The translations under genes and the position numbers were made by a program. DNA of 64,000 nucleotides from Nitrospina sp. (lineage in GTDB: Bacteria > Nitrospinota > Nitrospinia > Nitrospinales > VA-1), in assembly GCA_018673915.1 (NCBI GenBank), contig JABHBK010000001.1:68069-132068 (forward strand). The letters are read 5' to 3'. How positions within the stretch are numbered: the stretch's first letter is position 1; the number at the start of each line of letters is the position of its first letter. The notes beneath the pieces are model-generated. The model was not told the origin of the DNA and ran no database searches. It saw nothing but the letters and a program-made list of their open reading frames with translations. Shown piece by piece: positions 2,961 through 56,252 of the stretch.

Positions 2961-4805
2961 TTACAAGTTTTTTAGCCTTTGTGAGCGGGCAAGATTGAGG
3001 GCCGATTTGGGTTGGGAATCCTTCTGGTTTCTATTTTCAGATTTAGATTGGATATTTACATTCAAGCTTGTTCCACCGAGCCCCACTAAATTGGAAGGGG
3101 TGAAGGATGTGGAGGTACTTGCCGTGCTAATGTTTTCTGCAGGTTTGGAATTCTTGGATTCTGAATTATTCTGTGTTTTCTGACTCGCTTGTCCAGGAGG
3201 AGTGAATGTCTCGCTGCGAATAGATGATGTAGGAGAAGCATTGCTGCTGGAAGTGGTGCTGACTCCTCCGAGTCCATTAAACGTTCTTTCCCCTGAGGGT
3301 TTGGCTCGAGTGATGTTGCGGGTTCCAAAGTCTACTCCTCCGATTCCTATTGTAGGAGTAGTGATGTTGAAATTTTGGGCTACTTCCACTCCACCAATGC
3401 CTACCGCAGGGCTATTAGCGTTTCTTATAATGGAAGCGACTGCTGGTGTAGACGGTTTTTTAGGTTCTGGTTTAATTTCTAGTTTAATATCTGTTTTAGT
3501 TTTCATTTTCGTTTTAATTTCTACTTTGACTTCTGGCTGGGAAGATTTAGGGGTTATAATTTTTTCAATTTTAGAGGTGGCCTTAGGGATGTCAATGGTT
3601 CCATTTTTTGCACTTAAGGTTCCATATGATTCGGTAGTTCCTTTAACAACGATTTTCCCAGCCATTCCCCAATCCATGAGGGTGTCAGCGTTAACTTCGG
3701 AACCCATATTGATGAGGGTGCGATAGGAGTTTTGCGTGTTGCCATTTATATCCCCGCCTATATAAGCACTGCCTTGTCCGGCGTTAGAAGAAACATCCAC
3801 CCGCGCTCCATTACGCAAGGTGACATTTTTTCCTGCAACTCTTACCAGGCCGCCTTTTTCCTGCCATCCTTTTCCGGAAGCATCAAGTTGACCGGATACA
3901 TTTACCGTTCCCTGATCTCCACCATCCAGGATAATAGCTCCTTCCTGATTCATGGAGATGGATTTTGCTTGAATGATGCCATCCATATTGATGACCTGAT
4001 CGAGCGCGTTTTGTGCTGTTGCGACCTTTAGGGTAACGATGCCGCCATCGGCATAAATTTTCCCGCTATTGGATACCTGAGCATCGAGTTCTTCCCCATA
4101 CATTCCGGTTGCTTGTTTCATTACAGTGTCATTAACGCCCAGATTAATCAGTTGGTCGCCATAAAGGTCGAGGGTGAAGGTATTGCCTGAAACAAGGCTG
4201 ACTCTTCCAAGCCTGGCGTTGATAGTGCCGGAGTTGGAAACGCCAGGAGCTACCAATGCTACCAAACCACCCTCGCTAACGGTGATGATTCCTTTGTTGA
4301 TGACGACACCCCTGGAATTGTTAGAGGGAAGGTTGAAATTGAAATTATCGTTCATAAACTCCCAATTGCTGATGTCGGTGGTGGTAGCTACCAGACCTCG
4401 AACATCTACTCTGGCTGTGTCCCCGAAAATTACACCATTGGGATTGATCAACACGAGACGACCGTTTGAATTGAGACTACCTAAAATGGATGACGCTTGG
4501 TCTCCTGTAACCCGATTCAGGGTTATGCCATTTGTGGAGGATAACTTAAAATCGACAGCTTCGTTAACCCCGACGCTGAAAGACCGCCAATCTATAATAG
4601 CCTTATCGGAACTCTGGGTGACATTAAGCTGTTGGGCATTAGGTTGGCTAAATGTTACATCACCAGTCTGCTTTGTTGGGTCTTGCGGAAGAGCATAAGC
4701 CAGATGAGTAACCAACAACGGAGAAAGGAATAGTGCGAGAAAAGTAAGGAGAATTTTTCCATCGCTGCTTTTATTGTCTGATTTTAATTTAAATATTTCT
4801 TTCAT
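2961..4805 (-). CDS. two-partner-secretion (TpsA-type) exoprotein with filamentous haemagglutinin N-terminal domain
   Basis: Has an extended signal peptide and the TPS-domain signature LNRVTGDQASSILGSLNSNGRLVLINPNGVIFG. A beta-helix-like G/N/V-rich body follows. The C-terminus is a K/E/P then S/T/N-rich low-complexity tail. Confidence 0.8.
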   Translation of the reverse strand: MKEIFKLKSDNKSSDGKILLTFLALFLSPLLVTHLAYALPQDPTKQTGDVTFSQPNAQQLNVTQSSDKAIIDWRSFSVGVNEAVDFKLSSTNGITLNRVTGDQASSILGSLNSNGRLVLINPNGVIFGDTARVDVRGLVATTTDISNWEFMNDNFNFNLPSNNSRGVVINKGIITVSEGGLVALVAPGVSNSGTINARLGRVSLVSGNTFTLDLYGDQLINLGVNDTVMKQATGMYGEELDAQVSNSGKIYADGGIVTLKVATAQNALDQVINMDGIIQAKSISMNQEGAIILDGGDQGTVNVSGQLDASGKGWQEKGGLVRVAGKNVTLRNGARVDVSSNAGQGSAYIGGDINGNTQNSYRTLINMGSEVNADTLMDWGMAGKIVVKGTTESYGTLSAKNGTIDIPKATSKIEKIITPKSSQPEVKVEIKTKMKTKTDIKLEIKPEPKKPSTPAVASIIRNANSPAVGIGGVEVAQNFNITTPTIGIGGVDFGTRNITRAKPSGERTFNGLGGVSTTSSSNASPTSSIRSETFTPPGQASQKTQNNSESKNSKPAENISTASTSTSFTPSNLVGLGGTSLNVNIQSKSENRNQKDSQPKSALNLARSQRLKNL

Positions 4806-36069: not shown

Positions 36070-37428
36070 CTAGGTTAACTGGTATTTTTTTAGCATGCGG
36101 TAAAACGTGCTGCGGCTGATTCCCAAAGCTTTCGCCGCACCGGGGATATTTCCGTCGGTTTGTTCCAAGGCCTGGTTTAGAGTTTGCTTGACCACTTCAT
36201 GGTAGGGAGTGAGACCCTCGGTTTTTGCATTTATCTTTTCATCAGTAGGAGCTGAAGAGTCGAAGACGTCTTCGGGTAAACAGTCGGCGTCCAGAGTGTC
36301 GTAGGAGGTGACGATCATGGCCTGATAAAGAGTGTTTTCGAGTTGGCGGATGTTTCCGGGCCAGGAATATTCCTGCAAAATCTGCATGGCTTCATCACTG
36401 ACTGACAGGATTTCTTTGCCAATATCTTTTTGATGTTTTTTAAGGAAATGGCTGCAAAGCGGAGGAATGTCTTCTACTCTATCCCGCAAGGCGGAGACTT
36501 CTATGGGAAAGACGGCCAGCCGATAATAAAGGTCTTCTCGAAAGGCTTCTTTTTCAATCAATGTTTTAAGATTTTTGTTGGTCGCACAGATTACCCGGGT
36601 ATCAACCTGTATTTTTTGGGTGTCTCCCACGCGCTCTAAATATTTTTCCTGCAAAAAGCGCAACAATTTGGCCTGGGTGGAGAGGCTCATTTCCGCCACC
36701 TCATCGAGAAACAGGGTGCCTCCATCTGCCAGCTCCAGTTTTCCGGGTCGAGATTCGGTGGCGCCGGTGAAAGCCCCTTTTTTATGGCCGAACAATTCGC
36801 TTTCCTGTAGTGATTCGGGAATGGCTCCGCAATTGATATCTACAAAAGGTCCTTTGGCGTAGGTGCTGTTACGATGAACGGCGCGGGCAATGAGTTCTTT
36901 TCCGGTTCCGGTTTCTCCGAGAATGAGTACGCTGGCTTTGGTGGGTGCGACCTGATGAACTTTTTTTAGTGTTTCATTTAACGCATTACTATTGCCTATG
37001 ATTTCATCTTTTCCGGATAGACGGTCCACTTCGCTTTGCAGGTGGTGGACTTTGCGGACCAGGTTTCTTTGTTCAAAGGCTTTATCCAGACAGGTAAAAA
37101 GACGGGTTTCATCAACAGGTTTTAAAAGATAGTCATAAGCACCTAGCTTGATCACTTCGACAGCGGTTTCGACTTTGTCAACGCTGGTGAGCATGACCAC
37201 AGGTATATCTGGGTGGGTGGCTTTGATTTGTTTTAAAGTTTCCTGGCCGCTCAGGCCGGGCATCATCACATCGAGGAGGATCAGAGAAGGATTGTCCTCC
37301 AGTGCGTCAAGCAAGGCTTTTCCGCTTTCGAATTTTTGCACTGCATAGCCCTGGTCTTCCAAAAGCGCCTTCATCAGGCCTCTCAGCGGGGAATCATCAT
37401 CGACTACGAATATCAACTCAGTGGCCAT
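36070..37428 (-). CDS. sigma-54-dependent response regulator (NtrC family)
   Basis: REC domain (VVDDD, LILLDVMMPG, KP). AAA+ domain with GETGTGKE, GAFTGA and LFLDEV. C-terminal Fis-type HTH. Confidence 0.93.
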   Translation of the reverse strand: MATELIFVVDDDSPLRGLMKALLEDQGYAVQKFESGKALLDALEDNPSLILLDVMMPGLSGQETLKQIKATHPDIPVVMLTSVDKVETAVEVIKLGAYDYLLKPVDETRLFTCLDKAFEQRNLVRKVHHLQSEVDRLSGKDEIIGNSNALNETLKKVHQVAPTKASVLILGETGTGKELIARAVHRNSTYAKGPFVDINCGAIPESLQESELFGHKKGAFTGATESRPGKLELADGGTLFLDEVAEMSLSTQAKLLRFLQEKYLERVGDTQKIQVDTRVICATNKNLKTLIEKEAFREDLYYRLAVFPIEVSALRDRVEDIPPLCSHFLKKHQKDIGKEILSVSDEAMQILQEYSWPGNIRQLENTLYQAMIVTSYDTLDADCLPEDVFDSSAPTDEKINAKTEGLTPYHEVVKQTLNQALEQTDGNIPGAAKALGISRSTFYRMLKKYQLT

Positions 37429-37548
37429 TTTAATTCAAATCAATAGGTTAGGCTTATCATTCATTGATTGTAGCCCACTCCGCAAAATTTAAGAAAAAAA
37501 TGATAAACTGATGGTGTTCACAATTTCAAGGAAAGGTGAAAATTTCAA

Positions 37549-39297
37549 ATGGGATCGTTGGCAAGTCAAACTAGAGGGGTTTTGTTGGCAGGATTGGTTT
37601 TGGCTATTGTGAGTTGGGGTATTGCTCGCGATCGTGCTCAGAAAACCTGGTTCAATGAATTGGAGCAGGAGGTTCTGGAAGACACTCTTATTCTGACTGG
37701 AGAACTGGAAGTAGTGAAGAGGGAATTGGGAGGCATAGTGTCCCTTTATAATTCTTCAGAATTTGTAAGTCGGGAAGAGTTTGGAGCTTATGTCCAGCCT
37801 CTTTTAAGGAACCATCCCTTCATTCAGGCCTTTGAGTGGATTCCGCTTATTGACCACTCGGAAAGGGAAGGGTTTGAAGGCATTACCCGTTCTATGGGAT
37901 ATGTAGAGTTTCATGTCTTTTCATCGTCAGGTCCCTCCGAGGCAAAGCAGGAATATTTTCCGGTACATTATGTAGAACCTATTCCCGGCAATGAGCAGAC
38001 GCTTGGCTTTGATCTGGCTTCTGATCCGAAATTGTTAGAACTCACCAATACCGCGAGAGATACGGGAAGAGAAGTTGCGGCTTCACGGTTTGGGCCGGTA
38101 CCCAACGCCCGATCACAATTGGATATGATAATTCTTGCTCCTTATTATAATGGAGGAAAGAACCCAGAACGAACTGAAGAAAGACGGGAGCATTTAAAAG
38201 GTTTTGTGCTTGGTATTTATCGAGTTGGGGACATGATTGATCAAATGCTCAATCCTTATATTCCCAATGGAATGAATTTAACTGTTTACGAGGAAGGTGA
38301 TCTGGTTCCAGAAAATCTACTTTATGGTAATTCTTTAAAAAATCCAGCCATGAAGATCACCAACGTTGTTACTGTTTCCAACCGTCGCTGGTTTTTGGTT
38401 TGGCAGGTTACTGAAGAGTTTCGCGGTGGGCCTCAAACATTAAATGCGTTTTGGGTGGGGCTTGCCATTTTATCAGGAGCCCTGTTTCTATCTATTATCA
38501 TCGAGATAATGGCATCGCGAACTCGTGTTGTGGAGAGTGAGGTTCGGGTTCGTACGGAAGAATTGACTCAGGCAAACCAGAAGCTGGTTGAGTTGAACGA
38601 TTTAAAAAATAAATTTCTTGGAATGGCATCGCACGATCTCAGGAATCCTCTTGCTTCGATTCGTGGTTATTCGAAATTTCTTTTAGATAAAGGAATGCAA
38701 GTCAAGGAGGATACACGACAGGAATTTTTAACAAGCATTAAAAATGTCAGTGGAAATATGTTGGAGTTGATCAGCAACCTTTTGGATATCTCGGTGATTG
38801 AGAGTGGGCAGTTGAAACTGAACCCCGAAAAAGCATCCATAAAAAAACTCGCTGAAGAGAAAATCCATCTGCAACAGATTTTGGCGGATAAAAAAAATAT
38901 TGTCCTCCATGCGGATTTGGAAGAGGTTCCGGAATTTTATTTTGACGCAAACCGTATGGGGCAGGTGATGGATAATCTTCTCAGTAATGCGGTTAAGTAT
39001 TCACCGCCGGATAAAGAGGTTTTTGTCAAGCTGGAGTCGACGGGAGAAATCATGACTGTCAGCGTAAAGGATGACGGGCCAGGGATTTCCCCAGATGAGC
39101 AGGGGCAGCTATTCCAGCATTTTCAAAAATTAAGCGCCCGACCCACGGGGGGTGAAAGCAGTTCTGGCTTGGGGTTGGCTATTGCTCAGAGAATTGTGGA
39201 AGAACATCAAGGTAGCATTGGTGTGGATAGCCAACTCGGTCAGGGGGCTACGTTTTACTTTTCTTTGCCCACTGGGAATCTGGAAACTACGGAATAA
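37549..39297 (+). CDS. CHASE-domain sensor histidine kinase
   Basis: The periplasmic region has FIQAFEWIP...FPVHYVEP...LGFDLASDP (CHASE-like). A TM helix follows, then H-box ASHDLRNPL and HATPase NAVKYS/DDGPGI/GLGLAI. Confidence 0.85.
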   Translation: MGSLASQTRGVLLAGLVLAIVSWGIARDRAQKTWFNELEQEVLEDTLILTGELEVVKRELGGIVSLYNSSEFVSREEFGAYVQPLLRNHPFIQAFEWIPLIDHSEREGFEGITRSMGYVEFHVFSSSGPSEAKQEYFPVHYVEPIPGNEQTLGFDLASDPKLLELTNTARDTGREVAASRFGPVPNARSQLDMIILAPYYNGGKNPERTEERREHLKGFVLGIYRVGDMIDQMLNPYIPNGMNLTVYEEGDLVPENLLYGNSLKNPAMKITNVVTVSNRRWFLVWQVTEEFRGGPQTLNAFWVGLAILSGALFLSIIIEIMASRTRVVESEVRVRTEELTQANQKLVELNDLKNKFLGMASHDLRNPLASIRGYSKFLLDKGMQVKEDTRQEFLTSIKNVSGNMLELISNLLDISVIESGQLKLNPEKASIKKLAEEKIHLQQILADKKNIVLHADLEEVPEFYFDANRMGQVMDNLLSNAVKYSPPDKEVFVKLESTGEIMTVSVKDDGPGISPDEQGQLFQHFQKLSARPTGGESSSGLGLAIAQRIVEEHQGSIGVDSQLGQGATFYFSLPTGNLETTE

Positions 39298-41648: not shown

Positions 41649-42638
41649 TTAGGGAGCAACCCTCCAAATCGAGTTTACAAAATATTTCTGCGAATCAAAT
41701 AAATGTTCCTCGATTTGAAACCCGCTTTCAGTGGCGAGGCTTTCTATTTCCTCAAGAGTAAATTTAAAAGATTGTTCCGTCTGCATCGTTTCCCAAGCTT
41801 TAAAATGATAGTCTTCGTCTAAGGACTTAATATGTACAGTTTGGTTGCATGTGCTGTATAGATAACTTTCAACTGCGCGGGTATTTGGGTTGTATTGGCC
41901 TTGTTGCACAAAGTTATTTTTATTAAAGTTTGCTCCGAGCATCTGATTAATGCGATCCAGAAGATGCAGATTGAATTTTTCAAATAGCTGGTTATTGTAG
42001 GCAGAATAAAGCAGTTTAGGGTTTTTCATGAGGTCAAATCCAATCAATAAGTAATCCTTTGGTCCCAGCGTCTCGCATAAATTTTTGAGAAATGATCGGG
42101 CTGTATCCCGGTCCATATTGTTCAGGGTTACTCCTAAAAAGAGGACCAGGTTTTGCTTTGAACCTTCTTGTGTAATGGTGTTGAGACCATCAAAATAATC
42201 TCCGATCAAACCTGTAACTTGAAGGTGGGTGTCTTGCTGTTCAGCTTCCAGGGATCGAACCAGGTTTGTGACCGCTCCGCTGGAAATATCTATGGGGAAA
42301 TAATGAAAACCGAAATTTTCATTGAGTAAATGTTCGATGAGAATCCTGGTCTTACAACCATCCCCTGAACCCAACTCGATAAGGTTGAATTTGTCACCGG
42401 AAATAAGTTTTGCAATTTTGTTTTTATGGTTACGAATGATTTCAAATTCACATGCTGCGGGAAGATACTCTGCGAGCTCTGTTATCGCCTTGAAAATCAC
42501 ACTTCCAGCGCTATCAAAAATTAGCCAGGAGGGTAAACACTTGTTATCAAGTGAGAGGCCCTTATGAACTGCGCTTGCAAATTGATCCTCCTGAGAAATT
42601 GATGCGGACCCGGCTTTCAGGGTTTTTGTTTCAAACAA
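41649..42638 (-). CDS. EgtD-family (Methyltransf_33) SAM-dependent amino-acid N-methyltransferase
   Basis: TTG start after GAAAGGAG. LPSWLIFDSAGSVIF..ITELAEY, LIELGSGDGCKTRILIEHL, YFPIDIS, LFLGVTLNN, and TEQSFKF colinear with M. smegmatis EgtD as I recall it. Confidence 0.75.
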   Translation of the reverse strand: MFETKTLKAGSASISQEDQFASAVHKGLSLDNKCLPSWLIFDSAGSVIFKAITELAEYLPAACEFEIIRNHKNKIAKLISGDKFNLIELGSGDGCKTRILIEHLLNENFGFHYFPIDISSGAVTNLVRSLEAEQQDTHLQVTGLIGDYFDGLNTITQEGSKQNLVLFLGVTLNNMDRDTARSFLKNLCETLGPKDYLLIGFDLMKNPKLLYSAYNNQLFEKFNLHLLDRINQMLGANFNKNNFVQQGQYNPNTRAVESYLYSTCNQTVHIKSLDEDYHFKAWETMQTEQSFKFTLEEIESLATESGFQIEEHLFDSQKYFVNSIWRVAP

Positions 42639-42842: not shown

Positions 42843-43904
42843 ATGCATTTTAATTCACAAACAGATTCTACAGCCCTAGATTATACCTACCAGGAATTGG
42901 AGGATGAGTTCGTAGGTTTGATGAATTTGAATAATCTGGATAGAGTCATTGCGGGAAACCCTGATCGGGTTGAAAGTTTTGAGTTGGAACTTGAAGTTTC
43001 TTTGTCTGCCGCATTTGAAAGTGGTGCGGGTTGCCCTCAAGCACGCTTGCTTTTGCAGAGAATTCTATATCGCATAAACCGTTTGAAACTTTTTTGGTAT
43101 GACGGATTAGACAATTATGCCAATGAAGATTCCAGTTTCCTGTTTTCATTACGAATGAAAATTGAGAATGCCTGGCAGGATTGGGAGGATGGTAATAACA
43201 TCATGCGCAATTCCGATGATCTCCGCGGGGCTCTTCGTGATCGTGTGCAGGATGACCTGCAACCCGAGCCGTCGCCGGATGGTTTGGTCATTCGTAATGA
43301 GATTTCAAAAGCCGGGTACCAGCAATTGCTCGCTATAACTTCCCTGGACGGTCTGGTGGAAGCGAGTCAGCTTTCCCGTATGCTTGGAGGTGTCGGAAAC
43401 GAAGTGCAGACGATGCTGACGCGGATTTTATGGGAAGAATATGGTAGTGGAAAATTTTCGCGAAAGCATTCCACACATTTCGCACTCATGCTGGAAGAAT
43501 GTGATTTAGATTCAAGGCCGGAAGTTTATTTTGATCTTGCGCCGTGGGAGGTGCTGGCAAATATTAACCATAGTTTTTTTCTTTCCGAGCGTAAGAAAAA
43601 CTTTTTACGTTATATCGGTGGTTTGCTCTACACGGAAGTTTCTGTTCCTGCTGCGTTTCAAAATATCAAAATGGCTGGTGAGCGTTTGGAAATGGGTGGA
43701 AAGGGGGTCAGCTATTGGGATCTTCATATCCAAGAGGATATCCGCCATGGGCAATGGATGCTGGATGATGTTGCCTTTCCCCTGATTGAAAAATATCCTG
43801 ATCAAGCCTGGGACATGGTAAAGGGGTATGACCAGCAAAAGTTTATCAGCTCCCGTGCGACCTCAGCCATTGTAGAGTCCATTCGACAACTGGAATTCTC
43901 CTGA
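42843..43904 (+). CDS. haem-oxygenase-like di-iron (iron-containing redox enzyme) family protein
   Basis: LWEEYGSGKFSRKHSTHF (E..E/H helix) and YWDLHIQEDIRHGQW (H-x2-ED-x2-H) are typical metal-ligand helices of the family. No Shine-Dalgarno sequence, so the start is uncertain. Confidence 0.6.
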   Translation: MHFNSQTDSTALDYTYQELEDEFVGLMNLNNLDRVIAGNPDRVESFELELEVSLSAAFESGAGCPQARLLLQRILYRINRLKLFWYDGLDNYANEDSSFLFSLRMKIENAWQDWEDGNNIMRNSDDLRGALRDRVQDDLQPEPSPDGLVIRNEISKAGYQQLLAITSLDGLVEASQLSRMLGGVGNEVQTMLTRILWEEYGSGKFSRKHSTHFALMLEECDLDSRPEVYFDLAPWEVLANINHSFFLSERKKNFLRYIGGLLYTEVSVPAAFQNIKMAGERLEMGGKGVSYWDLHIQEDIRHGQWMLDDVAFPLIEKYPDQAWDMVKGYDQQKFISSRATSAIVESIRQLEFS

Positions 43905-43920
43905 GAACTACCAATATTAA

Positions 43921-44352
43921 TCAGGAAGAAATATCCAAAGTCTTTTTTGTGTCAATGGTCAACAATAAGGCGTCCTTGAGTTTATAGACTCCATGAATCA
44001 ATTGGCGTGCTACGTCATCCAATGTTTCGGGAGGAGGCTCAAGGGCTTCATCCCCCACCTCGAGAACATCTCCGATGCGGTCAACCAGGAGGCTCACTAC
44101 ATCATCATCGGTCCTGATAACTACATTCATGGGTTTCTTGTCACCTGGAAGGTCTTTCATTCCTAGCCGACGTCTCAAATCAATGGCTGTAATGATTTGT
44201 CCTCTGAGATTGATCAATCCTCGAACCACTGAGGGAGCAAGTGGAACCTGCGTCATTTCCTGGTAGCGAAAAACTTCCTGCACCCGTTCCACTTCGACAC
44301 CAAAAAAACGATCCTCAAGGTAAAATGTGCAAAACTGTTTTTGATCATTCAT
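43921..44352 (-). CDS. cheW: chemotaxis coupling protein CheW
   Basis: 143 aa. FCTFYLEDRFFGVEVERVQEV...PLAPSVVRGLINLRGQIITAIDL. Confidence 0.92.
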   Translation of the reverse strand: MNDQKQFCTFYLEDRFFGVEVERVQEVFRYQEMTQVPLAPSVVRGLINLRGQIITAIDLRRRLGMKDLPGDKKPMNVVIRTDDDVVSLLVDRIGDVLEVGDEALEPPPETLDDVARQLIHGVYKLKDALLLTIDTKKTLDISS

Positions 44353-44476: not shown

Positions 44477-47113
44477 TTAATGGGTTAAACTCAAAACCTC
44501 TTGGTGGTCATCAAAAAATGCTGGGTCCATTTCACGAACAATGCCCTCCATGTCAATCAAGTCCGTGACCAAATCTTGAACCACTACCGTTCCCAGGATT
44601 CCTTTCCGTGTAAGAGATCTTTTTACAGTTATATTTTCTTCGACAATATCAAGAATTTGATCGACCACCAGGGCTACACTTTTATTTTGGTGCGTGTATA
44701 TGATCGTTTGAATCGTTGCATTCTTTTTGACCTGTTGGCTGGAATCGAAAAAATTTAAAAGATCAATAAGAGGTATGATTTCTCCTCGGTATTGAATGAC
44801 GTCATTGTTTCCTGAGCGTTCAATGTCCGAACATTTGAATTCCTCCAGGCGTGCGACAGTAGAAAGCGGGATGGAGTTTCGTCCTTTTTCTCCAACTCTA
44901 AAGATCAATAAGGTTTCCTTGTCAGTAACCTCATTGTCTGCCAGGCTTTTATCTTTCGAATCTGCCATGGCTTGCTCCTGGTTTTCACGGACTACCTGTG
45001 CCTTTTGAGCCAGACCCATTATGTCAAGGATCAGTGCCACGCTTCCGTCTCCCATAATGGTTGCTCCAGAAAAACCTGCGATTCCCTTCAATTGGTTTCC
45101 CAAGGGTTTCACTACAATTTCCTCCGCATCACAGATCTGCTCAACGACGAGGCCAAACTGTCTTTCATTGGCGTTTAAAACAACAATATTGGTCGCTGTT
45201 TGAGCACTTTCATTTTTTGAAATTCCCAGTTCAGAATTCAAATTTATGATGGGCAAAAGGTTACCTCGAAGACGATATACCGGGGTCCCTTGAATCGTTT
45301 CGATCGCTTTTTCAGACTGCTCCTCATTCAAACGGACCAGCTCCAGCAGATTCACTTGAGGTATTGCATACTGGTTGCCTCCTGTTGAAACGATCAAAGC
45401 TGGAATAATTGCCAGGGTTAAAGGAATTCTTACTTTCAGGGTGGTGCCTTCCCCTTGACAGGTATGAATATCAACCGTTCCACCAATTTTATCAATATTG
45501 GTTTTAACCACATCCATCCCGACACCACGACCGGATACATTTGTAACTGCTTTCGCTGTAGAAAGCCCAGGCATGAAAATAAGGTTCACCAATTCGCGCT
45601 CGCCCATTTTTGCAGCCTGCTCGCTGGTGATCAAACCTTTGCTCAAGGCTTTTTCTTTGAGGATAGAGGGGTCAATTCCACCGCCATCATCTGTGATTTC
45701 AATAATGACCTGTCCTCCCTCATGGTAGGATTTCAGCTGTAAAACGCCTTCCTCAGGTTTACCTAGGTCGCGTCTTACATCGGGGATTTCTATCCCATGG
45801 TCTACTGAGTTACGTATAATATGTGTTAGCGGATCCTTAATCGCCTCGATCAAGGTTTTGTCCAGCTCCGTTTCTTTTCCTTCCGTTTCAAGGCGAATTT
45901 TCTTGCCGCATTCCATGGACAAATCACGAACTATTCTGGGGAACTTGCTCCAAATTCCGCCTATAGGCTGCATCCGCGTTTTCATCACTCCTTCCTGAAG
46001 ATCAGAAGTCACCAAATTTAAATGCTGGGAAGTTTCCATGAAGCTGGCATCATGGTGAGAGGAACTAAACTGCAGAACCTGATTTCTAGCTAAGACCAGT
46101 TCTCCAACCAGGTTCATCAGCTTATCAAGCAACTGGACATCAACGCGAATACTGGAATCCTCCAGCTTGCGCTCTTCCTTTTTTGCCGTACCTGAGCCAG
46201 AAGATTTTTTAACTTTTCCATTGGATGGGGTTACTTCAGGTTTTCCGTTCCCGGGCGTAAGACCTGACACTTCAGGAGCCTCTTTAGTTAGGGCTATTTC
46301 TTTTTTGGAGGGTTCTGATTTTGTTCGATTCAGAACATCATTTTTAACAGAAAGCGCTATGCGGGCCGCCTCCCCAATTAAATCACCGGGAACTTTCAAT
46401 TCCATCAAGGTCGTTCCAAAGTCTTCTATGACCGCATCAAAATGGCTTTCGTTCAGGCCTTTCTCTTCTACAAGATATTTGTGCGTTTCCCTGAGTCCTC
46501 TTCCGTCATAATTACTGGGGCCGCCAAACGCGAAAGCCAAAAACTCTTTTTGCTTATTCAGAAGGTGGTTCAAGTCTGCGCCTTCAAAAAAATGACTGAT
46601 ACGGTCGTCATTTAGAACTTTTGCGTAAAACAGGTTGACCGTTGCATCGACCGCTTCTTGTCCACCCATTCTCTCAAAAAGGGATGCAGGCTTTGCACCA
46701 TTCCCATTTCCTGAGGCTGGTTTTCCAGTCGCATCTGCCCGCAGGCGTTCCATGGACTCAATTAATCCAGAAAAATTATGATCTCCTTCATTTCCCTGTT
46801 TAGTTACAGATGTGAATATTCTGCGTATTGAATCTGACAGTTCATGCAGGATATTCATGATTTCTGGAGTTGGTGCTACCTTGCCCTGCTGAAGCGCATC
46901 TAGAAAGTTTTCACCAGAGTGGGTTAGAGATTCGAGCTTGGTGTAACCAATTAATCCGCAGCTACCCTTGATGTTATGGATAGTTCGAAAAATACCTTCT
47001 AATAATTCCGGGGAATGGGGAGTTTCTTCCAGGCTAATCAGGTCCTGATCAAACCGATCCAGGTTCTCACGACTCTCGGCCACAAACTCCAAGATCATTT
47101 CATTGGCTTGCAT
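44477..47113 (-). CDS. cheA: CheA-type histidine kinase with embedded truncated-globin domain and two CheW-like domains
   Basis: ATG at 47113 follows AGGAAGGA. Hpt domain (FRTIHNIKGS), globin-like insert, dimerisation helix, HATPase (NSVDHGIE, DDGGGI, GRGVGMDVV), then two CheW-like modules. Confidence 0.92.
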   Translation of the reverse strand: MQANEMILEFVAESRENLDRFDQDLISLEETPHSPELLEGIFRTIHNIKGSCGLIGYTKLESLTHSGENFLDALQQGKVAPTPEIMNILHELSDSIRRIFTSVTKQGNEGDHNFSGLIESMERLRADATGKPASGNGNGAKPASLFERMGGQEAVDATVNLFYAKVLNDDRISHFFEGADLNHLLNKQKEFLAFAFGGPSNYDGRGLRETHKYLVEEKGLNESHFDAVIEDFGTTLMELKVPGDLIGEAARIALSVKNDVLNRTKSEPSKKEIALTKEAPEVSGLTPGNGKPEVTPSNGKVKKSSGSGTAKKEERKLEDSSIRVDVQLLDKLMNLVGELVLARNQVLQFSSSHHDASFMETSQHLNLVTSDLQEGVMKTRMQPIGGIWSKFPRIVRDLSMECGKKIRLETEGKETELDKTLIEAIKDPLTHIIRNSVDHGIEIPDVRRDLGKPEEGVLQLKSYHEGGQVIIEITDDGGGIDPSILKEKALSKGLITSEQAAKMGERELVNLIFMPGLSTAKAVTNVSGRGVGMDVVKTNIDKIGGTVDIHTCQGEGTTLKVRIPLTLAIIPALIVSTGGNQYAIPQVNLLELVRLNEEQSEKAIETIQGTPVYRLRGNLLPIINLNSELGISKNESAQTATNIVVLNANERQFGLVVEQICDAEEIVVKPLGNQLKGIAGFSGATIMGDGSVALILDIMGLAQKAQVVRENQEQAMADSKDKSLADNEVTDKETLLIFRVGEKGRNSIPLSTVARLEEFKCSDIERSGNNDVIQYRGEIIPLIDLLNFFDSSQQVKKNATIQTIIYTHQNKSVALVVDQILDIVEENITVKRSLTRKGILGTVVVQDLVTDLIDMEGIVREMDPAFFDDHQEVLSLTH
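46328..46687 (-). other. group-I truncated haemoglobin (Bac_globin-like) domain inside CheA
   Basis: SLFERMGGQEAVDATVNLFYAKVLNDDRISHFFEGADLNHLLNKQKEFLAFAFGGPSNYDGRGLRETHKYL...HFDAV, colinear with M. tuberculosis HbN as I recall it. Confidence 0.75.
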
Positions 47114-47189
47114 GATTGATTCCTTCCTTATTTCTTTAGTATTCACGGGCCTTACCTCCAGATAAAGTTCCCGAAACTGTTGGGAGTTT

Positions 47190-47227
47190 ATTGAAGGGCT
47201 TCGGGTTTTTAACCGAAGCCCTTCAAT
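47190..47227 (-). other. perfect 15-bp intercistronic hairpin between mcp and cheA
   Basis: ATTGAAGGGCTTCGG, an 8-nt loop, then CCGAAGCCCTTCAAT. No U-run on either strand. Confidence 0.8.
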
Positions 47228-47242
47228 GCAAATACCGACTGT

Positions 47243-49264
47243 TTAGCCATTAAACTCGCTGACAATATTTTGCATTTCTGCCGCCAGTTTAGACAATTCA
47301 CTCGCTGCTGTTTGAGTATCCGTAGCACCTTCGGTGGTGCTATGAGCCGCCTGAGCCACACCGGCAATATTCTCGGCAATCTCTTGAGATCCGCGGGAGG
47401 CATCGGTGACATTACGGGTGATCTCGTTGGTGGTGGCCGACTGCTCCTCCACCGCACTGGCAATGGTGTTGGAGATATCGCTGATCTGGCCAATAACCCC
47501 GCTGATCTCACCAATAGCAGTTACAGCACTCTGAGTATCCGTTTGTATGGCGGAGATTTTACTGCTGATTTCCTCGGTAGCCTTGGCAGTCTGATTAGCC
47601 AGTTCCTTGACCTCGTTGGCGACTACGGCGAATCCTTTACCTGCTTCACCAGCACGTGCTGCTTCAATGGTGGCATTCAAGGCCAATAGATTGGTCTGTT
47701 CCGCAATCGAGGTGATGACTTTGATGACTTGGCCAATCTCAGCCGAACTGACTCCCAACTGGGTCACTGTCTTGTTGGTGGTCTCGGCCAACTGAACCGC
47801 ATCGCTGGTGACTTTGGTAGCCTGGTTGGCGTTATGAGCAATCTCTTTTATGCTTGCGCTCATTTCTTCCGAACCGGTAGCTACCGTTTGAATGTTCTGG
47901 TTCACCTGATCGGAGGCGGCAGAGACGACATTGGACTGAGCCGAAGTCTCTTCCGCATTTCCGGCCATTTGCTGGCTGGTGGCGGTCAACTCCTCTGAGG
48001 CTCCGGCAAGGGTCTGGGCTTTTTCCGCAACATTGTTAAGAACCTTCTGCATGTTTTCGTTCTGTTCTTTTTCGCGTTTTTCAGCCGCCAGTTTTTCGGT
48101 AATCACTTCCCAGGTAACCATGGGCCCGAGGTAATTTTTATCCTTATCATAGATAGCACTGACCAGAAGATCGAGGACCTCAGGACCCACTTGTATTTCT
48201 GCACGATGTGGCAGGTTATTGGGATCAGATAGAATTTTGCGCTGATGTGCAGGGTTCTTGTGGAAAACATCTATGGATGAACCCATTAATTGGTCCACTC
48301 GAATAGGAAGATGTTGTTCAATGGTTTTTAATGTTGTAACGGATGCTGGGTTGACGTAGGTGATTTGAAAGGTTTCTGCATCAGCAAAAAGCACGTTCAC
48401 TGGGGCATTTTCCATCATGGAGTTAACTCGGGCGACTTCATTCTCGGTCTTTAACTTTTGAGTTATAACGTCCCAAGTGACCATCGGTCCCAGGTAGTTC
48501 TTGTTTTCATCATAAATAGCGCTGACCAGAAGATCGAGGATCTCAGGCCCAACTTGTATTTCTGTACGATGCGGCAGGTTATTGGGATCAGAAAGAAGTT
48601 TTCTTTGGTGCGCGGGGTTCTTGTGAAAAACATCTATGCATTGTCCCATCAATTTATCCACAGGAATGGGTAAATATTGTTCAATGGTTTTTAACGTCTT
48701 TATGGAAGCAGGGTTGACATAGGTGATTTCAAAACTATCTTTATCGGCATATATGACGTTAACCGGGGCGTTCTCCATCATTGAGTTGACCCTATCCATA
48801 GCCCGTTTCGTGATATTGATTTTGGTGACATCTTCCCAGTTGACGACATAACCGGAAATCATACCATTGGAATCGTTGATTGAGTTTATGGTAGCGGCAA
48901 GCGTCACCCCACCAAAACCAAACTCAGCCGTGTGCGGCAAAGCAGAAGGATTGCGTAAAATTCTTTCAATCTTTTGCGGGTCTTTATGAAACCGGTGGAT
49001 GGAACCACCGACGATATCGTTCAGGTTAACCCCAAATGCTTCATTAATCTGGTCCTTGATGGTTTCCAAGGTGTTCACAGCACTTTGATTGGCGTAAACG
49101 AGAGTGAAATTTGTATCCGCCACCAGCACATTTGCTTGAACATTGTCCAGGCAGGAAAGCAGACCTCCCGAAGATTTCATTAAACCATTACTGCCATTTC
49201 CTCCACCAAACAGGCCGAGAAATCCAGATTTACTTGCAGATGATTGGGTGGCGAGCATATTCAT
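47243..49264 (-). CDS. soluble methyl-accepting chemotaxis protein with three N-terminal PAS domains
   Basis: No TM helix. Three PAS modules each carry FHK(N/D)P...W(D/E)(D/V). The C-terminal MCP signalling domain has ([29 protein letters not shown]). GGAGGA Shine-Dalgarno sequence. Confidence 0.92.
48092..48793 (-). repeat. tandem 363-bp duplication encoding PAS2 and PAS3 of the MCP
   Basis: GACCAGAAGATCGAGGA occurs at 48161 and 48524, an offset of 363. The protein copies differ at 20 of 113 aligned residues by my count. Confidence 0.9.
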
Positions 49265-49408: not shown

Positions 49409-49424
49409 AGCAAAAGGTATGCCA
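49409..49424 (-). promoter_or_regulatory. sigma-54 promoter of the mcp-cheA-cheW operon
   Basis: The minus strand reads TGGCAT-acctt-TTGCT, about 145 nt upstream of the mcp ATG. Confidence 0.7.
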
Positions 49425-51148: not shown

Positions 51149-52393
51149 TTAAATTGATTCTTCTCCATTTGAATTAATGGGAAGGGTGATTATGGATTGA
51201 GTCCCTCGTCCCTCGGTGCTTCGGACTTTTAAATCTCCGCCATGTTTTTTAATGATTCCGTAACTGACAGAAAGCCCCAGGCCTGTGCCTTTAACCTCTC
51301 CCTTAGTCGTAAAGAAAGGGTCAAAAATTTTTTCCATGTGTTGCTGTTTTATGCCCTGCCCGATATCCTCAATTTCTACTTCAACGTTTGAATTGAGAAC
51401 TTTGGTGCGAATAGTTATTGCTCCACCCTTTTTGCAGGCCTCATTTGAGTTTTGCAGGAGGTTTAAAATGACCTGTTTGAACTGGTCTTCCACCACTCTG
51501 ACATCGGGTAAACACTCAACGTACTCCTTGGTCAACTGTATATTCTCTTTGTTGAAATCATTCTTCTTGAGCATGAGCATGTCATCAATAGCATTATGAA
51601 GGTTCAAGGGTTGAGGTGTTCCCGAAGTAGGGCGGTAAAAGTCTTTAAGCTGATGAGCGAGGTTCATGACGCGATTGCTCTCATTGATTGAAAGCTCCAC
51701 CAGTTCTTTCAGAGAGTCTTCCATGGTGGTTCCCTGCTGAACCTGTTCAAGGGTATTGCGAATTCCCATCAGAGGGTTGTTGAATTCATGAGCGATACTT
51801 GCGGCTAATTGACCGAGAGCCGAAAGTTTTTCGACGTGCAAAAGTTGCTGATTAACATTTTGCAACTCTTTTTCTGATCGTTCCCGTTCGGCTATTTCTT
51901 TTTTAAGTTGTTGGTTAGCCAGTTTTAGATCGGCGGTTCTTTCAAGCACTCTCTGCTCAACAAAATCTTTTTGAGCTCCAAGGTTTTTATTCAGCAACCG
52001 CACTTCAAGAATATTTTGAATTCTGCAAAGCACCTCCGATAGATCCAGAGGTTTAGACAAGAAATCCCGAGCGCCGAACTGCAGTGCCTTGAGGCGAACC
52101 GATGGGTCAGATTCTGCAGTTAATACCAGAATGGGCGCATAAGAGTCATCATTTTCAATTTGCTTGATTTGCTCAATGACCTGAAAGCCATCCAAATGTG
52201 GCATTCTCAAATCTAGCAAAACAAGGTCTGGTTTAAGTTCCTGGTATAGAGATGCCGCTTTTCTGGAGTCTGTTGTGCTGGTGATGCAGCTATAATTTGC
52301 CTGTTTTAATGCCGACTCCAGGACAATGATGTTTGAGCTCTCATCATCTACCATAAGGATTTTGGCTTTTAAAATTTCAGCTTTATCTATCAT
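51149..52393 (-). CDS. hybrid protein: N-terminal receiver domain plus histidine kinase
   Basis: REC domain (ILMVDDE, LVLLDLRMPHLDG, KP), a coiled coil, H-box IAHEFNNPL, and HATPase NSNEAC/DIGQGI/GTGLGLS. Confidence 0.9.
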   Translation of the reverse strand: MIDKAEILKAKILMVDDESSNIIVLESALKQANYSCITSTTDSRKAASLYQELKPDLVLLDLRMPHLDGFQVIEQIKQIENDDSYAPILVLTAESDPSVRLKALQFGARDFLSKPLDLSEVLCRIQNILEVRLLNKNLGAQKDFVEQRVLERTADLKLANQQLKKEIAERERSEKELQNVNQQLLHVEKLSALGQLAASIAHEFNNPLMGIRNTLEQVQQGTTMEDSLKELVELSINESNRVMNLAHQLKDFYRPTSGTPQPLNLHNAIDDMLMLKKNDFNKENIQLTKEYVECLPDVRVVEDQFKQVILNLLQNSNEACKKGGAITIRTKVLNSNVEVEIEDIGQGIKQQHMEKIFDPFFTTKGEVKGTGLGLSVSYGIIKKHGGDLKVRSTEGRGTQSIITLPINSNGEESI

Positions 52394-52499: not shown

Positions 52500-52515
52500 A
52501 GCAAGATAAGTGCCA
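52500..52515 (-). promoter_or_regulatory. sigma-54 promoter of the REC-HK / NtrC-type regulator operon
   Basis: The minus strand reads TGGCAC-ttatc-TTGCT (consensus -24 and -12), about 105 nt upstream of the ATG at 52393. Confidence 0.75.
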
Positions 52516-55433: not shown

Positions 55434-56252
55434 ATGATTGAGTTTGATATAGATCAAATATCCGGAATGAAAATTCTCATTGTGGATGATATTTTGGAGA
55501 ATGTGGATATTTTGGGCCATATTCTTCAACGAAGTGGTTTGGAGATTTCTATTTCTCCAACGGGTGAAAAGGCTCTTGAGGTGATCAGCAAGAATAAGCC
55601 AGACCTGATTCTGATGGATATCAAAATGCCGGGTATGGATGGTTACGAAGTTTGTGCCAAGCTGAAAGCTGATGTGAAAACCAAAGATATTCCCGTTATT
55701 TTTATTACTGCCATGTCAAGTACCGAAGACCTGGTTCGGTCATATAATGCGGGTGGTATCGATTATATTGCCAAACCCTTTCAGGAACAGGAAGTCGTTT
55801 GCAGGATAACCACCCAGCTTAAACTCAAAAAAGCCCAGGATGAAGTAATGCGCCGGGAAAAATTTTATCGGGTCATTGTGGAGAGTGTGCCAGACCTGAT
55901 ATTTCAGTTGGACCCGGATCGGGAAATTATATTCGCGAATCCTGCCTTCCGCCTACTGGGTTATGACCCGGTTGAGCTAGTTGGTACGCCTATCGGAGAC
56001 TTGATCGAATCAGAGAATAAGGAAAGTCTTCTGCAAAGTCTTGCGACTAGAAATGTTGGTCCTCTGGCGATCAGCGACCTTGAGGTTAATTTGAAGGTCA
56101 GTAATGAAGTGAGTCTGGTAACCGAATTGTCAAACCAGAAGATTCTTGTTGATTCCGTCGGCCTTTGGAATGTTTCAGATGAAGACGTTTTCAGGGAGAA
56201 TGTAGATAAGAAGTTTTTAGGAACTCTTTGTGTAGGGAAAAAAGCCGAATAG
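55434..56252 (+). CDS. response regulator: receiver plus PAS domain
   Basis: ILIVDDILEN, LILMDIKMPGMDG, AKP. Then a PAS-like region YRVIVESVPDLIFQLDPDREIIFANPAF. Confidence 0.85.
   Translation: MIEFDIDQISGMKILIVDDILENVDILGHILQRSGLEISISPTGEKALEVISKNKPDLILMDIKMPGMDGYEVCAKLKADVKTKDIPVIFITAMSSTEDLVRSYNAGGIDYIAKPFQEQEVVCRITTQLKLKKAQDEVMRREKFYRVIVESVPDLIFQLDPDREIIFANPAFRLLGYDPVELVGTPIGDLIESENKESLLQSLATRNVGPLAISDLEVNLKVSNEVSLVTELSNQKILVDSVGLWNVSDEDVFRENVDKKFLGTLCVGKKAE

Follow-up and report, generated by a model that had tools for sequence, protein, structure and literature searches.

The textbook CheA is a passive relay, the activity of which is set only by the receptors. A cheA gene of Nitrospina sp. 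poses the question whether a chemotaxis kinase may also carry a sensory input of its own. The initial annotation of the 64,000-nucleotide stretch of DNA analysed here (the window) placed a truncated haemoglobin (trHb) domain at positions 46328-46687, inside CheA, and suggested that a gas bound there could act directly on the kinase. We asked what this domain is, how it came to lie in CheA, and what it may do.

The globin domain and its place in CheA

The gene lies on the minus strand. Read on this strand, 46328-46687 gives ASLFERMGGQEAVDATVNLFYAKVLNDDRISHFFEGADLNHLLNKQKEFLAFAFGGPSNYDGRGLRETHKYLVEEKGLNESHFDAV..., identical to the sequence in the initial annotation; a plus-strand reading is ruled out by stop codons in the same interval. 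Two start codons are possible. GTG 47146, which has a GGAGG 7 nt upstream, gives the 889-aa protein listed by NCBI (MBT3366488.1 and others, ‘chemotaxis protein CheA [Nitrospina sp.]’). ATG 47113 gives the 878-aa form of the JGI gene callers, the length first annotated. The identical protein is found in four NCBI MAG records, and at least 30 contigs of marine metagenomes, from independent assemblies, carry the identical 878-aa form. An Rfam scan of the window returned no match. The features of the gene are as follows (residues of the 889-aa form).

44477-47146, minus strand: CheA with embedded globin, 889 aa from GTG 47146
46727-47113, minus strand: P1/Hpt, residues 12-140 (Pfam Hpt 16-105, 51 bits)
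46685-46726, minus strand: linker 1, residues 141-154, GKPASGNGNGAKPA, predicted disordered
46322-46684, minus strand: trHb domain, residues 155-275 (Pfam Bac_globin 155-253)
46157-46321, minus strand: linker 2, residues 276-330, predicted disordered, rich in Pro, Gly, Ser, Lys and Glu
45977-46156, minus strand: P3 dimerisation domain, residues 331-390 (Pfam H-kinase_dim, 62 bits)
45416-45835, minus strand: P4 ATP-binding kinase domain, residues 438-577 (Pfam HATPase_c, 56.9 bits)
44999-45400, minus strand: P5a, first CheW-like domain, residues 583-716 (Pfam CheW)
44480-44920, minus strand: P5b, second CheW-like domain, residues ~743-889 (second Pfam CheW stretch)
44477-44479, minus strand: stop codon of CheA

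A Pfam search finds Hpt, Bac_globin, H-kinase_dim, HATPase_c, CheW and CheW in exactly the order that the initial annotation had predicted. The protein has the makings of a genuine CheA, with an Hpt domain that carries a phospho-acceptor histidine, followed by P3, P4 and P5 in order. His57 (FRTIHNIKGS; codon 46976-46978) is invariant in alignment A1, and the N, G1, F and G2 boxes of P4 can be read in the translation (HIIRNSVDHG, DDGGGID, IFMPGLST and GRGVGMD). The two CheW stretches together score 132.6 bits, and P5b is conserved in two relatives (L001 and P0206). NCBIfam equivalog models for CheA match residues 284-715 with E-values of 1e-123 to 1e-133, under their full-length cut-offs because the N-terminal half differs.

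The domain between P1 and P3 scores 53.3 bits against Bac_globin (PF01152; E 3.9e-14, gathering cut-off 21), and that of the orthologue L001 scores 56.3 bits. Searched with phmmer against PDB sequences, it matches Synechocystis GlbN at E 1.6e-34, in an alignment without gaps from B10 through F8, and M. tuberculosis HbN at 1e-18. Group-I matches range from 1e-34 to 1e-9 and group-II matches from 1e-7 to 1e-4; group I is ahead by more than 20 orders of magnitude. AlphaFold2 (AF2) predicts a 2-on-2 helical fold (pLDDT 85-95). The top 32 Foldseek matches of this model in the PDB are all group-I trHbs (TM 0.7-0.89), with THB1, HbN and a Tetrahymena trHb at 0.78-0.89. An assignment to the S-family (protoglobin/globin-coupled sensor, GCS) was rejected, as Protoglobin (PF11563) reaches 13.3 bits and E 0.081 at a cut-off of 25. 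What lies between P1 and P3 of this complete CheA is a 2/2 haemoglobin domain of group I (N-type); Pfam, phmmer and AF2/Foldseek all agree with the first annotator’s reading.

A codon check located each of the motifs listed in the initial annotation: Phe173 (B9) and Tyr174 (B10; 46625-46627), K198-Q199-x-x-F202 in the E helix (Lys198 E10, 46553-46555; Gln199 E11; Phe202 E14), G208-G209-P210, and the proximal His222 (F8; 46481-46483). Phe187 occupies CD1 and Leu195 E7. The glycine hinges Gly161-Gly162 and Gly208-Gly209-Pro210 are, like His222, invariant in alignment A2, and the haem-pocket residues are invariant across the Nitrospinaceae orthologues and free tandem trHbs. The significant Bac_globin match and the conserved B10 Tyr and proximal His are among the points on which the initial annotation had staked its claim. 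With all pocket residues intact, the sequence is that of a haem-competent globin.

In the CheA of E. coli and Thermotoga, P2 lies between P1 and P3 on flexible linkers, and the globin had been annotated as sitting in this P2 slot. Its position is correct. The implied displacement of P2 does not hold, as in the closest globin-free CheAs of Nitrospina this place is taken by a second Hpt. These tandem-Hpt proteins belong to the same kinase lineage and share the P1-P3 slot and the flexible linkers, with the second Hpt in place of the haem domain. The globin thus fills a variable slot and displaces no P2. Pfam detects no P2 or CheY-binding family in CheA at E ≤ 0.1, and residues 141-330 are wholly occupied by the linkers and the globin. 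A residual P2 was rejected, having neither a Pfam match nor room in the AF2 model.

In the AF2 model of residues 1-400 (pTM 0.40), the domains reach pLDDT >90 (including the P1 helices, residues 3-140) and the linkers ~30-45. Linker 1 falls below 50 at residues 142-151 and linker 2 to ~30 at residues 277-334; the latter is indel-variable among orthologues (49% identity and 7 gaps against L001). No confident packing of P1 on the globin or of the globin on P3 is predicted in this model. The domains are therefore modelled like beads on a string, with the globin tethered on both sides by disordered linkers.

Comparison with L001, an orthologue of 75% identity, gives a pN of 0.114 for the globin, 0.205 for Hpt, 0.069 for P4 and 0.25-0.45 for the linkers (linker 1, 0.25). 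As synonymous sites are saturated (pS 0.6-0.8), we compared pN between domains instead of using dN/dS. Judged by these values, the globin is under purifying selection, with a constraint stronger than that on Hpt.

Distribution and relation to known globin fusions

The initial annotation raised the possibility that a trHb-CheA fusion is novel. It is not unique: the protein is in NCBI, and fusions of this kind form ~40 clusters at 90% identity, from Nitrospinaceae and marine Alphaproteobacteria. It does appear to be undescribed, since a full-text literature search found no description of a trHb-CheA; Hade et al. 2017 (PMID 28394017) and Vinogradov et al. 2013 lie outside that search. Our genome-contig scan with Hpt-derived patterns recovered one true relative, L001, and under-samples the family.

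The P1-P3 insertion site is common to the Nitrospina and the alphaproteobacterial CheAs, and the alphaproteobacterial fusion lies in a flagellar che operon. The kinase core of the Nitrospina protein is 54-56% identical to those of the alphaproteobacterial fusions and 76-82% identical to those of globin-free Nitrospina CheAs. Neither these identities nor a nearest-neighbour analysis of the globins supports a single origin of all trHb-CheA fusions. Sequence comparison instead suggests at least two acquisitions at the one P1-P3 slot, by Nitrospinaceae and by Alphaproteobacteria. Fusions of related trHbs to CheW and to MCPs occur as well (P0178 and P0159 are MCP-trHb proteins), at the C-terminus in the case of MCPs. 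The reuse of one slot at distant kinase cores, together with the CheW and MCP fusions, suggests that the globin has been recruited repeatedly to chemosensory arrays. The proximal His is lost in 17 of the 60 CheA-embedded globin domains, namely in alphaproteobacterial proteins of the Kordiimonas and Emcibacter type and in P0161.

The closest solved relatives are GlbN (cyanoglobin) of Synechocystis and Synechococcus and THB1/THB4 of Chlamydomonas (E 1e-34 to 1e-24; 53% identity to GlbN, TM 0.83-0.89 to THB1). Tyr B10, Gln E11 and His F8 are common to these proteins and the CheA globin, but the relatives are free-standing and have enzymatic or protective roles, whereas the CheA globin is embedded. 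In GlbN, His E10 is the distal ligand and His117 serves the covalent haem link. In the phmmer alignment, these positions are Lys and Val in the CheA globin. Its Lys E10 matches THB1 and THB4, and its Leu E7 matches Cr-TrHb1-4; in THB1, Lys E10 has been proposed as the sixth ligand (PMC4439042).

HemAT and other globin-coupled sensors, the globin-coupled histidine kinases among them, likewise join a haem globin covalently to a signalling protein and so place chemotaxis or kinase output under the control of O2, NO or CO (PMC7475203, PMC13401364). Their globins are S-family, 3-on-3, N-terminal and helically linked to a receptor or HisKA kinase, whereas the CheA globin is T-family, 2-on-2 group I and internal, and its host is the class-II kinase CheA. 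Being neither S-family nor N-terminal (residues 155-275 of 889), it falls outside a strict definition of GCS. A T-family globin on a chemotaxis protein has been predicted in silico to be an O2 sensor in Corallococcus coralloides (Cc_4972, PAS-Bac_globin-MCP; PMC6194562), but there the fusion partner is a receptor and not CheA. Other 2/2 globins are also found fused or in tandem, as in the chimeric and multi-unit trHbs (Streptomyces trHb-ABM, trHb-nitrate reductase; PMC7082302, PMC7475203). A 2020 review assigns bacterial trHb chimeras to T2/O and T3/P, and T1 chimeras to eukaryotes (PMC7475203). The CheA globin, in contrast, is a T1/N globin joined to a chemotaxis kinase in a bacterium.

The chemosensory cluster

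The genes and sites around cheA are the following.

43921-44352, minus strand: CheW, downstream gene of the cluster (Pfam CheW, 104.7 bits)
47243-49264, minus strand: soluble Aer2-like MCP, directly upstream of cheA (Pfam MCPsignal and PAS)
49410-49424, minus strand: sigma-54-type -24/-12 promoter-like site, TGGCATACCTTTTGC, ~150 nt upstream of the MCP start codon
49734-51122, minus strand: NtrC-type sigma-54 activator (REC, AAA+, HTH_8), directly upstream of the cluster

The order MCP-CheA-CheW is kept in the window, in L001, L005 and L006 and, with one VTT-domain gene intervening between the last two, on the P0002 contig. The MCP contains three haem-PAS-type repeats, with the motif present twice and once as a variant, and a conserved Trp after each. 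Against the PDB, its PAS domains match those of Aer2 (3VOL, 4HI4 and 6CEQ; E 1e-14 to 1e-16), and Pfam detects no HAMP domain in it. Aer2 of P. aeruginosa and V. cholerae, which binds haem b through H234 (PMC13401364), is a cytoplasmic haem gas sensor that feeds the Che pathway, and a three-PAS homologue of it stands immediately upstream of CheA. Aer2, however, is a receptor of PAS fold flanked by HAMP domains, whereas the haem globin described here is in the kinase.

L001 has a perfect sigma-54 site, TGGCACATCTATTGC, in the equivalent place (3564-3578), where 0.07 matches are expected by chance. It also has a gene 49% identical to the NtrC-type activator at the same position, and L005 and L006 have a gene with the same Pfam domain set there. 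We infer that this activator probably regulates transcription of the cluster. A REC-HisKA kinase was rejected as a conserved partner, since the window and L001 proteins are only 24% identical, so that the activator is the better conserved of the two, and since it is absent from the P0002 contig. The neighbouring genes scanned (36-64 kb) include no single-domain CheY, CheB or CheR.

With an Aer2-like receptor of three haem-PAS domains beside a globin-bearing CheA, the whole cluster seems devoted to gas sensing, and by its gene content it appears to be a sigma-54-controlled multi-haem gas-sensing module. Such a module would suit an organism that lives along O2 and nitrite gradients. Marine Nitrospina account for ~10% of the bacteria of marine habitats and, at some interfaces, for as many as a third, according to a passage of PMC5029188. 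Given this abundance, an O2/NO-sensing cluster bears on how these bacteria are positioned or regulated along oxygen and nitrite gradients.

Possible roles of the embedded globin

We regard the chances as about even that the globin is a kinase-level sensor, which would bind haem b via His222 and provide a second input for O2, NO or redox. The kinase would work in a cytoplasmic array with CheW and the Aer2-like soluble receptor with its three haem-PAS domains. At rest, Lys198 (E10) probably serves as the distal ligand of a six-coordinate iron, on the model put forward for Chlamydomonas THB1, and a diatomic gas or a change of iron redox state would displace Lys198 and reposition the E helix. Known globin-coupled sensors signal through helical connectors, whereas the CheA globin is flanked by long linkers predicted to be disordered, which argue against a simple through-backbone mechanism. 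As such linkers cannot transmit torque, the signal would be passed on when the globin, depending on its ligand, docks onto P1, P4 or a partner receiver domain. Docking may then alter how often P1 reaches the ATP site or passes on its phosphate. Haem binding, Lys ligation, the identity of the ligand and the effect on kinase activity are all steps that we infer.

The fully specified version of this sensor model is a tentative one, to which we give rather less weight than an even chance. Here, O2 or NO on the trHb would displace Lys E10 and gate the P1-P4 interaction, so that CheA itself is the gas sensor and the array integrates two haem inputs, one from the Aer2-like receptor and one from the kinase-borne globin, which would differ in affinity or selectivity. 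Two points weigh against a kinase-level sensor in general. The closest characterised homologues (GlbN, THB1 and HbN) are known as enzymes or protectants, for example NO dioxygenases, rather than as sensors, and an array equipped with its own haem receptor has no obvious need of a second sensor. If a haem domain does feed a signal directly into the kinase, gas sensing would be wired into taxis in a new way; a gas-sensing kinase would be the first case of a sensory input that CheA itself contains and that needs no receptor, and this in the ocean’s main nitrite oxidisers. The globin is small and soluble and its homologues are well studied, so spectroscopy and kinase assays should be straightforward. 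The family also supplies natural controls, with haem-competent and haem-less insertions in CheA and versions tethered to CheW and to MCPs, which makes the mechanism directly testable.

An alternative that we consider unlikely, though the best of those weighed against the sensor model, is that the globin is an enzyme tethered to the array. It would act as an NO dioxygenase, nitrite reductase or O2 buffer that conditions the local NO/O2 pool, for instance by removing NO before it poisons or confuses the haem-PAS O2 sensor, and kinase activity would be unchanged by it. The closest characterised relatives are indeed enzymes: Cr-TrHb1 proteins turn nitrite into NO efficiently (PMC4439042), and a passage of PMC3493545 describes HbN as an NO dioxygenase. 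The host is a nitrite oxidiser, as a passage of PMC5029188 on Nitrospina nitrite oxidation indicates. Flexible linkers suit co-localisation and are poor for allostery, and that related globins are found indifferently on CheA, on CheW and at the C-terminal end of MCPs suggests that what counts is a place in the array, not a specific mechanical connection. On the other hand, catalytic NO dioxygenation depends on a reductase, and no such partner is fused to this CheA or encoded next to it; a single haem on each kinase offers little capacity for catalysis; and the haem-less derivatives kept in alphaproteobacterial CheAs cannot be enzymes.

Somewhat less probable still is a docking module akin to P2, in which the globin recruits a cognate response regulator or array component and haem is structural or dispensable. 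The globin occupies the P1-P3 slot on flexible linkers, exactly like P2. In the 17 of 60 CheA globins that have lost the F8 His, often along with the B10 Tyr, the domain is kept. CheA can thus retain a globin without haem, and at least in those lineages a docking or structural role is favoured. Haem-free globin folds also serve as sensor or adaptor domains elsewhere, for example in RsbR and in a sporulation kinase of B. anthracis (PMC7475203). In Nitrospinaceae, however, the invariance of the pocket extends to distal residues that matter only for ligand chemistry, the globin is more constrained than P1, and with no single-domain CheY beside the cluster (36-64 kb) there is no partner to propose.

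An assembly artefact or non-functional insertion, that is, a chimeric join or a decaying passenger without a role, is effectively refuted, and we give it a negligible chance: some relatives are damaged (P0003 is an enolase chimera, P0161 and P0002 are frameshifted, P0158 is a 265-aa remnant and in P0001 two globins, 96% identical to each other, stand at the end of a contig), but the intact 878/889-aa frame recurs on those 30 or more independent contigs, the orthologue at 75% identity is full-length, and the pN of the globin is low while synonymous sites are saturated.

A group-I truncated haemoglobin inside CheA

The minus-strand translation of 46328-46687 is exactly the peptide quoted in the initial annotation; coding on the plus strand was ruled out, as stop codons lie inside this interval. 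The peptide belongs to a CheA encoded by a single ORF. The 878 aa originally given correspond to the product from an in-frame ATG at 47113, and both lengths are found in public gene calls (878 aa, JGI; 889 aa, NCBI). Residue numbers refer to the 889-aa form, in which the globin comprises residues 155-275. The gene and its Pfam domains are as follows:

44477..47146, minus strand: CheA, single ORF of 889 aa from GTG, start 7 nt after GGAGG
Residues 16-105: Hpt (P1)
Residues 155-253: Bac_globin (53.3 bits, E 3.9e-14, cut-off 21)
Residues 331-390: H-kinase_dim (P3)
Residues 438-577: HATPase_c (P4)
C-terminal to HATPase_c: two CheW-like stretches

The domain order predicted beforehand (Hpt, Bac_globin, H-kinase_dim, HATPase_c, CheW, CheW) is exactly what the Pfam scan recovered, with Bac_globin above its cut-off. 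The presence of a globin in CheA is therefore confirmed, far beyond chance. The N, G1, F and G2 boxes of the kinase are legible in the translation.

The proposed identity of the insert, a group-I truncated haemoglobin (trHbN), agrees with a PDB sequence search, the pocket residues and the AlphaFold2 fold. The best PDB sequence matches were GlbN of Synechocystis (E 1.6e-34) and Synechococcus (1.1e-29), followed by proteins of Tetrahymena, Chlamydomonas (THB1 and THB4) and M. tuberculosis (HbN, 1e-18), while group-II proteins reached only 1e-7 to 1e-4. The cyanobacterial group-I truncated haemoglobins are thus the closest PDB group by sequence. AlphaFold2 predicts a 2-on-2 helical fold (pLDDT 85, rising above 90 with a deeper alignment), and among PDB structures the 32 best Foldseek matches of this model are, without exception, group-I truncated haemoglobins (TM 0.7-0.89). 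An S-family sensor globin was also considered and rejected, because the Protoglobin match (E 0.081) fell below threshold.

The alignment with GlbN is gap-free from B10 to F8, and the GlbN pocket positions can therefore be transferred directly. In GlbN we take these to be Tyr22 (B10), Gln43 (E7), His46 (E10), Gln47 (E11) and His70 (F8), a numbering that agrees with the alignment. The CheA globin has Tyr174 (B10), Leu195 (E7), Lys198 (E10), Gln199 (E11) and His222 (F8), besides Phe173 (B9) and Phe187 (CD1). It also has the two Gly-Gly hinges (G161-G162 and G208-G209-P210). The features first noticed by eye, namely the B9-B10 pair Phe173-Tyr174, Lys198-Gln199 in the E helix, G208-G209-P210 and the proximal His222, are thus all found. 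His117 of GlbN, which forms the covalent haem link, is replaced by Val. Leu E7 together with Lys E10 is shared with Chlamydomonas Cr-TrHb1-4, and in THB1 Lys E10 has been proposed as the sixth ligand of the iron (PMC4439042).

Flexible linkers and the P1-P3 slot

In an AlphaFold2 model of residues 1-400, built from an alignment of 36 fusion-type sequences, pLDDT exceeds 90 for the Hpt and globin domains and drops to about 30-45 for residues 142-151 and 277-334, with an overall pTM of 0.40. Hpt and globin therefore resemble beads on a disordered string, and no packing between them is confidently predicted in this model. Gly, Pro, Ser, Lys and Glu are abundant in the two linkers, which carry indels between orthologues.

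The globin had been described as lying where P2 normally sits. Its position between P1 and P3 holds, but the displacement of a P2 does not. The Pfam scan of CheA contains no P2, and the closest globin-free Nitrospina CheAs (P0019-P0024), whose P3-P4 core is 76-82% identical to that studied here, likewise lack one; they have two tandem Hpt domains with acidic proline-rich linkers between. Their second Hpt sits in the same slot as the globin, and the P1-P3 region is therefore a variable slot in the Nitrospina CheA lineage.

Because both linkers are disordered, the globin may be read out by docking. It would bind haem b via His222, and its resting state would be Lys198-ligated or otherwise closed. 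Binding of O2 or NO, or a change in the oxidation state of the iron, would alter its conformation. Ligand-dependent docking on P1, P4 or a receiver domain would then provide the readout and alter phosphate flux. As a whole, this mechanism of a haem-binding, ligand-responsive globin that acts by docking is the likeliest of the readings considered and has, in our judgement, an even chance of being correct.

The surrounding chemosensory cluster

The gene order MCP, CheA, CheW is kept in the window, in a Nitrospinaceae MAG contig with a full-length orthologue (L001), in the contigs L005 and L006, and in the contig of P0002, where one VTT-domain gene lies between CheA and CheW. The following features accompany cheA:

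47243-49264, minus strand: Aer2-like MCP with three tandem haem-PAS-type repeats, upstream of cheA
About 47190-47215, minus strand: perfect, GC-rich, 9-bp hairpin, GGGCTTCGG ttaaaaa CCGAAGCCC
49410-49424, minus strand: sigma-54 -24/-12-like site, one mismatch, between activator and MCP
3564-3578 of L001, plus strand: perfect sigma-54 -24/-12-like site at the equivalent place (0.07 expected by chance)
52501-52515, minus strand: perfect sigma-54 -24/-12-like site upstream of REC-HisKA / sigma-54-activator genes
41649-42638, minus strand: EgtD-like histidine-specific methyltransferase (PF10017), just downstream of CheW
42843-43904, plus strand: Haem_oxygenas_2 'iron-containing redox enzyme' (PF14518), just downstream of CheW

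The MCP is soluble, with no HAMP domain in Pfam and no obvious membrane segment. Its three PAS repeats match the haem-binding PAS structures of Aer2 (3VOL, 4HI4, 6CEQ; E 1e-14 to 1e-16) and include a FHKNPAHQR segment followed by a conserved Trp; a 12-letter PAS motif occurs twice, together with one 13-letter variant, with a conserved Trp per repeat. In P. aeruginosa Aer2, H234 of the PAS domain holds haem b (PMC13401364). Given these Aer2-type matches, the cluster already codes for a multi-haem gas receptor. A triple haem-PAS MCP is unusual in itself. With such a receptor next door, the CheA globin might instead be an array-tethered enzyme that processes NO or O2 and so conditions the signal reaching the receptor, which we consider unlikely, yet a reading to be weighed.

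Directly upstream of MCP-CheA-CheW lies an NtrC-type sigma-54 activator, which has a 49%-identical counterpart at the same position in L001; the counterparts in L005 and L006 share its Pfam domain content. Together with the promoter-like sites, this suggests sigma-54-dependent transcription of the cluster, controlled by the neighbouring regulator. The hairpin falls in the 96 nt that separate the stop codon of the MCP gene from the start codon of cheA; as it lacks a clear T-run, it may serve as an attenuator or influence RNA stability.

A scan of neighbouring genes in the 36-64 kb part of the window revealed no single-domain CheY, CheB or CheR. The PF10017 and PF14518 genes also accompany CheW in L005, in L006 and on the contig of P0002, though not in L001, and no functional tie to the che cluster is evident. 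Signalling genes are dense around the cluster:

36070-39297: signalling genes including a second sigma-54 activator and a CHASE histidine kinase
51149-52393: REC-HisKA-HATPase hybrid
55434-56252: REC-PAS protein

Occurrence and conservation of globin-CheA fusions

A word-seeded search, its query made up of Hpt and globin, found the fusion in five further Nitrospinaceae clusters. In P0001, a Nitrospinaceae protein on a 131-kb JGI contig, a tandem pair of globins (96% identical) follows the Hpt; since the gene extends to the end of the contig, the assembly may have broken at a repeat. A HMMER scan of 1.84 billion representatives with globin, linker and P3 as query gave one alignment covering globin and P3 in six proteins (P0155, P0158, P0161, P0168, P0190, P0206), for which Pfam confirmed the architecture Hpt-Bac_globin-H-kinase_dim-HATPase_c(-CheW). 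By source name P0155, P0190 and, via a cluster member, P0158 derive from Alphaproteobacteria/Rhodospirillaceae MAGs; P0168 and P0161 group by sequence with the alphaproteobacterial-named fusions. In a follow-up search with P0155, at least 31 clusters (90% identity) of alphaproteobacterial type showed the fusion architecture; Dongiaceae are the source of one, and another bears the label hydrothermal vent metagenome. The search also returned about 9 full-coverage relatives (Kordiimonas, Emcibacter) whose middle domain is beyond Pfam recognition.

On contig L007, a fusion CheA is part of a classical operon (CheA-CheW-CheY-CheB-CheR) adjoining fliI and fliJ. P0158 is a 265-aa remnant of globin and P3 only (8001-8798 of contig L008, 3521-4318 of L009), flanked by an HPTransfase gene and fliJ/fliI and present in 35 blocks of the collection. 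Since L007 has a full che operon at that position, the P0158 locus is apparently what is left of a chemotaxis operon that has decayed in an abundant alphaproteobacterium of the sea.

The studied kinase core is 54-56% identical to those of the alphaproteobacterial fusions, as against 76-82% to globin-free Nitrospina CheAs, and the nearest neighbours of the alphaproteobacterial CheA globins are free tandem globins, not each other. These identities and neighbour relations, rather than a tree, suggest that the P1-P3 slot received a globin independently, by insertion or domain swap, on at least two occasions.

The proximal His is kept in 43 of 60 CheA-embedded globin domains and lost in 17 (P0300, P0305, P0307-P0312, P0314-P0317, P0319, P0322, P0345, P0363, P0161), among which Tyr B10 is often lost too. 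Apart from P0161, these are relatives of P0155, a few named Kordiimonas, Kordiimonadaceae or Emcibacter, and they look like globin-fold domains that persist in CheA without haem. Such versions favour a P2-like docking module in which haem is secondary, but the perfect conservation of the distal pocket in the studied globin speaks against it; we find this reading slightly more doubtful still than a tethered enzyme. All Nitrospinaceae members have the full pocket, and its residues, including the proximal His and B10 Tyr on which the initial annotation had hinged, are invariant across the clade.

The full-length L001 orthologue (870 aa) is 75% identical and has the same architecture. Codon-by-codon comparison of the two genes showed saturated synonymous sites, which leaves the proportion of non-synonymous differences (pN) as the only informative measure.

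pN between the window cheA and the L001 cheA
P4: 0.069
First CheW-like domain: 0.106
Globin: 0.114
Hpt: 0.205
Linkers: 0.25-0.45

The globin is thus under stronger constraint than P1. The exact 878-aa protein occurs on at least 30 contigs, which stem from many marine metagenome assemblies, and NCBI lists the 889-aa form under the title "MAG: chemotaxis protein CheA [Nitrospina sp.]" (four accessions, among them MBT3366488.1). An artefact or decaying passenger is highly improbable and effectively excluded by the L001 orthologue, the pN comparison and these contigs and records. On sequence grounds, we regard it as secure that an intact, selected trHbN domain belongs to a working CheA in an apparently gas-sensing chemosensory cluster.

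That haem proteins can control chemotaxis and histidine kinases is well established, as in HemAT, Aer2, globin-coupled kinases and FixL. The present protein differs in that its globin is of the T family (group I), lies within a class-II kinase, between P1 and P3 of CheA, and has a flexible tether on either side; the novelty is this combination. Chimeric and tandem truncated haemoglobins have been catalogued (PMC7475203, PMC7082302), with group-I (T1) chimeras in eukaryotes only according to a 2020 review (PMC7475203). A Bac_globin-MCP is on record from in silico work (PMC6194562). Receptors based on globins and PAS domains are treated in a 2026 review of aerotaxis, which mentions neither truncated globins nor a globin within CheA (PMC13401364). 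A full-text literature search, which did not include the census of Hade et al. 2017, found no description of a trHb-CheA fusion. The suspected novelty thus stands for the literature that was searched; the proteins themselves are already public under generic names, and the fusion is therefore not categorically new.

Related truncated haemoglobins (45-65% identity to the CheA globin) are fused to CheW (P0193, P0225, P0226, P0238) or lie at the C-terminus of MCPs (P0159, P0178) in proteins from metagenomes. The globin is a recurrent add-on to chemosensory-array components beyond CheA. Among free proteins, those nearest to the CheA globins (P0005-P0018) consist of two or three tandem group-I units. 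In P0195, a truncated haemoglobin precedes a stretch judged PAS-like by eye. The eukaryote Lacrimia lanifica (EukProt; P0121, P0122) has an 1882-aa protein with 12 globin units. In Desulfobulbus sp. F3 (P0182/P0273, MCW5198676.1) a group-I truncated haemoglobin and a multihaem cytochrome c domain (c554/MtrC-like) form one fusion protein, and P0219 has, by sequence, several CxxCH motifs ahead of a C-terminal truncated haemoglobin.
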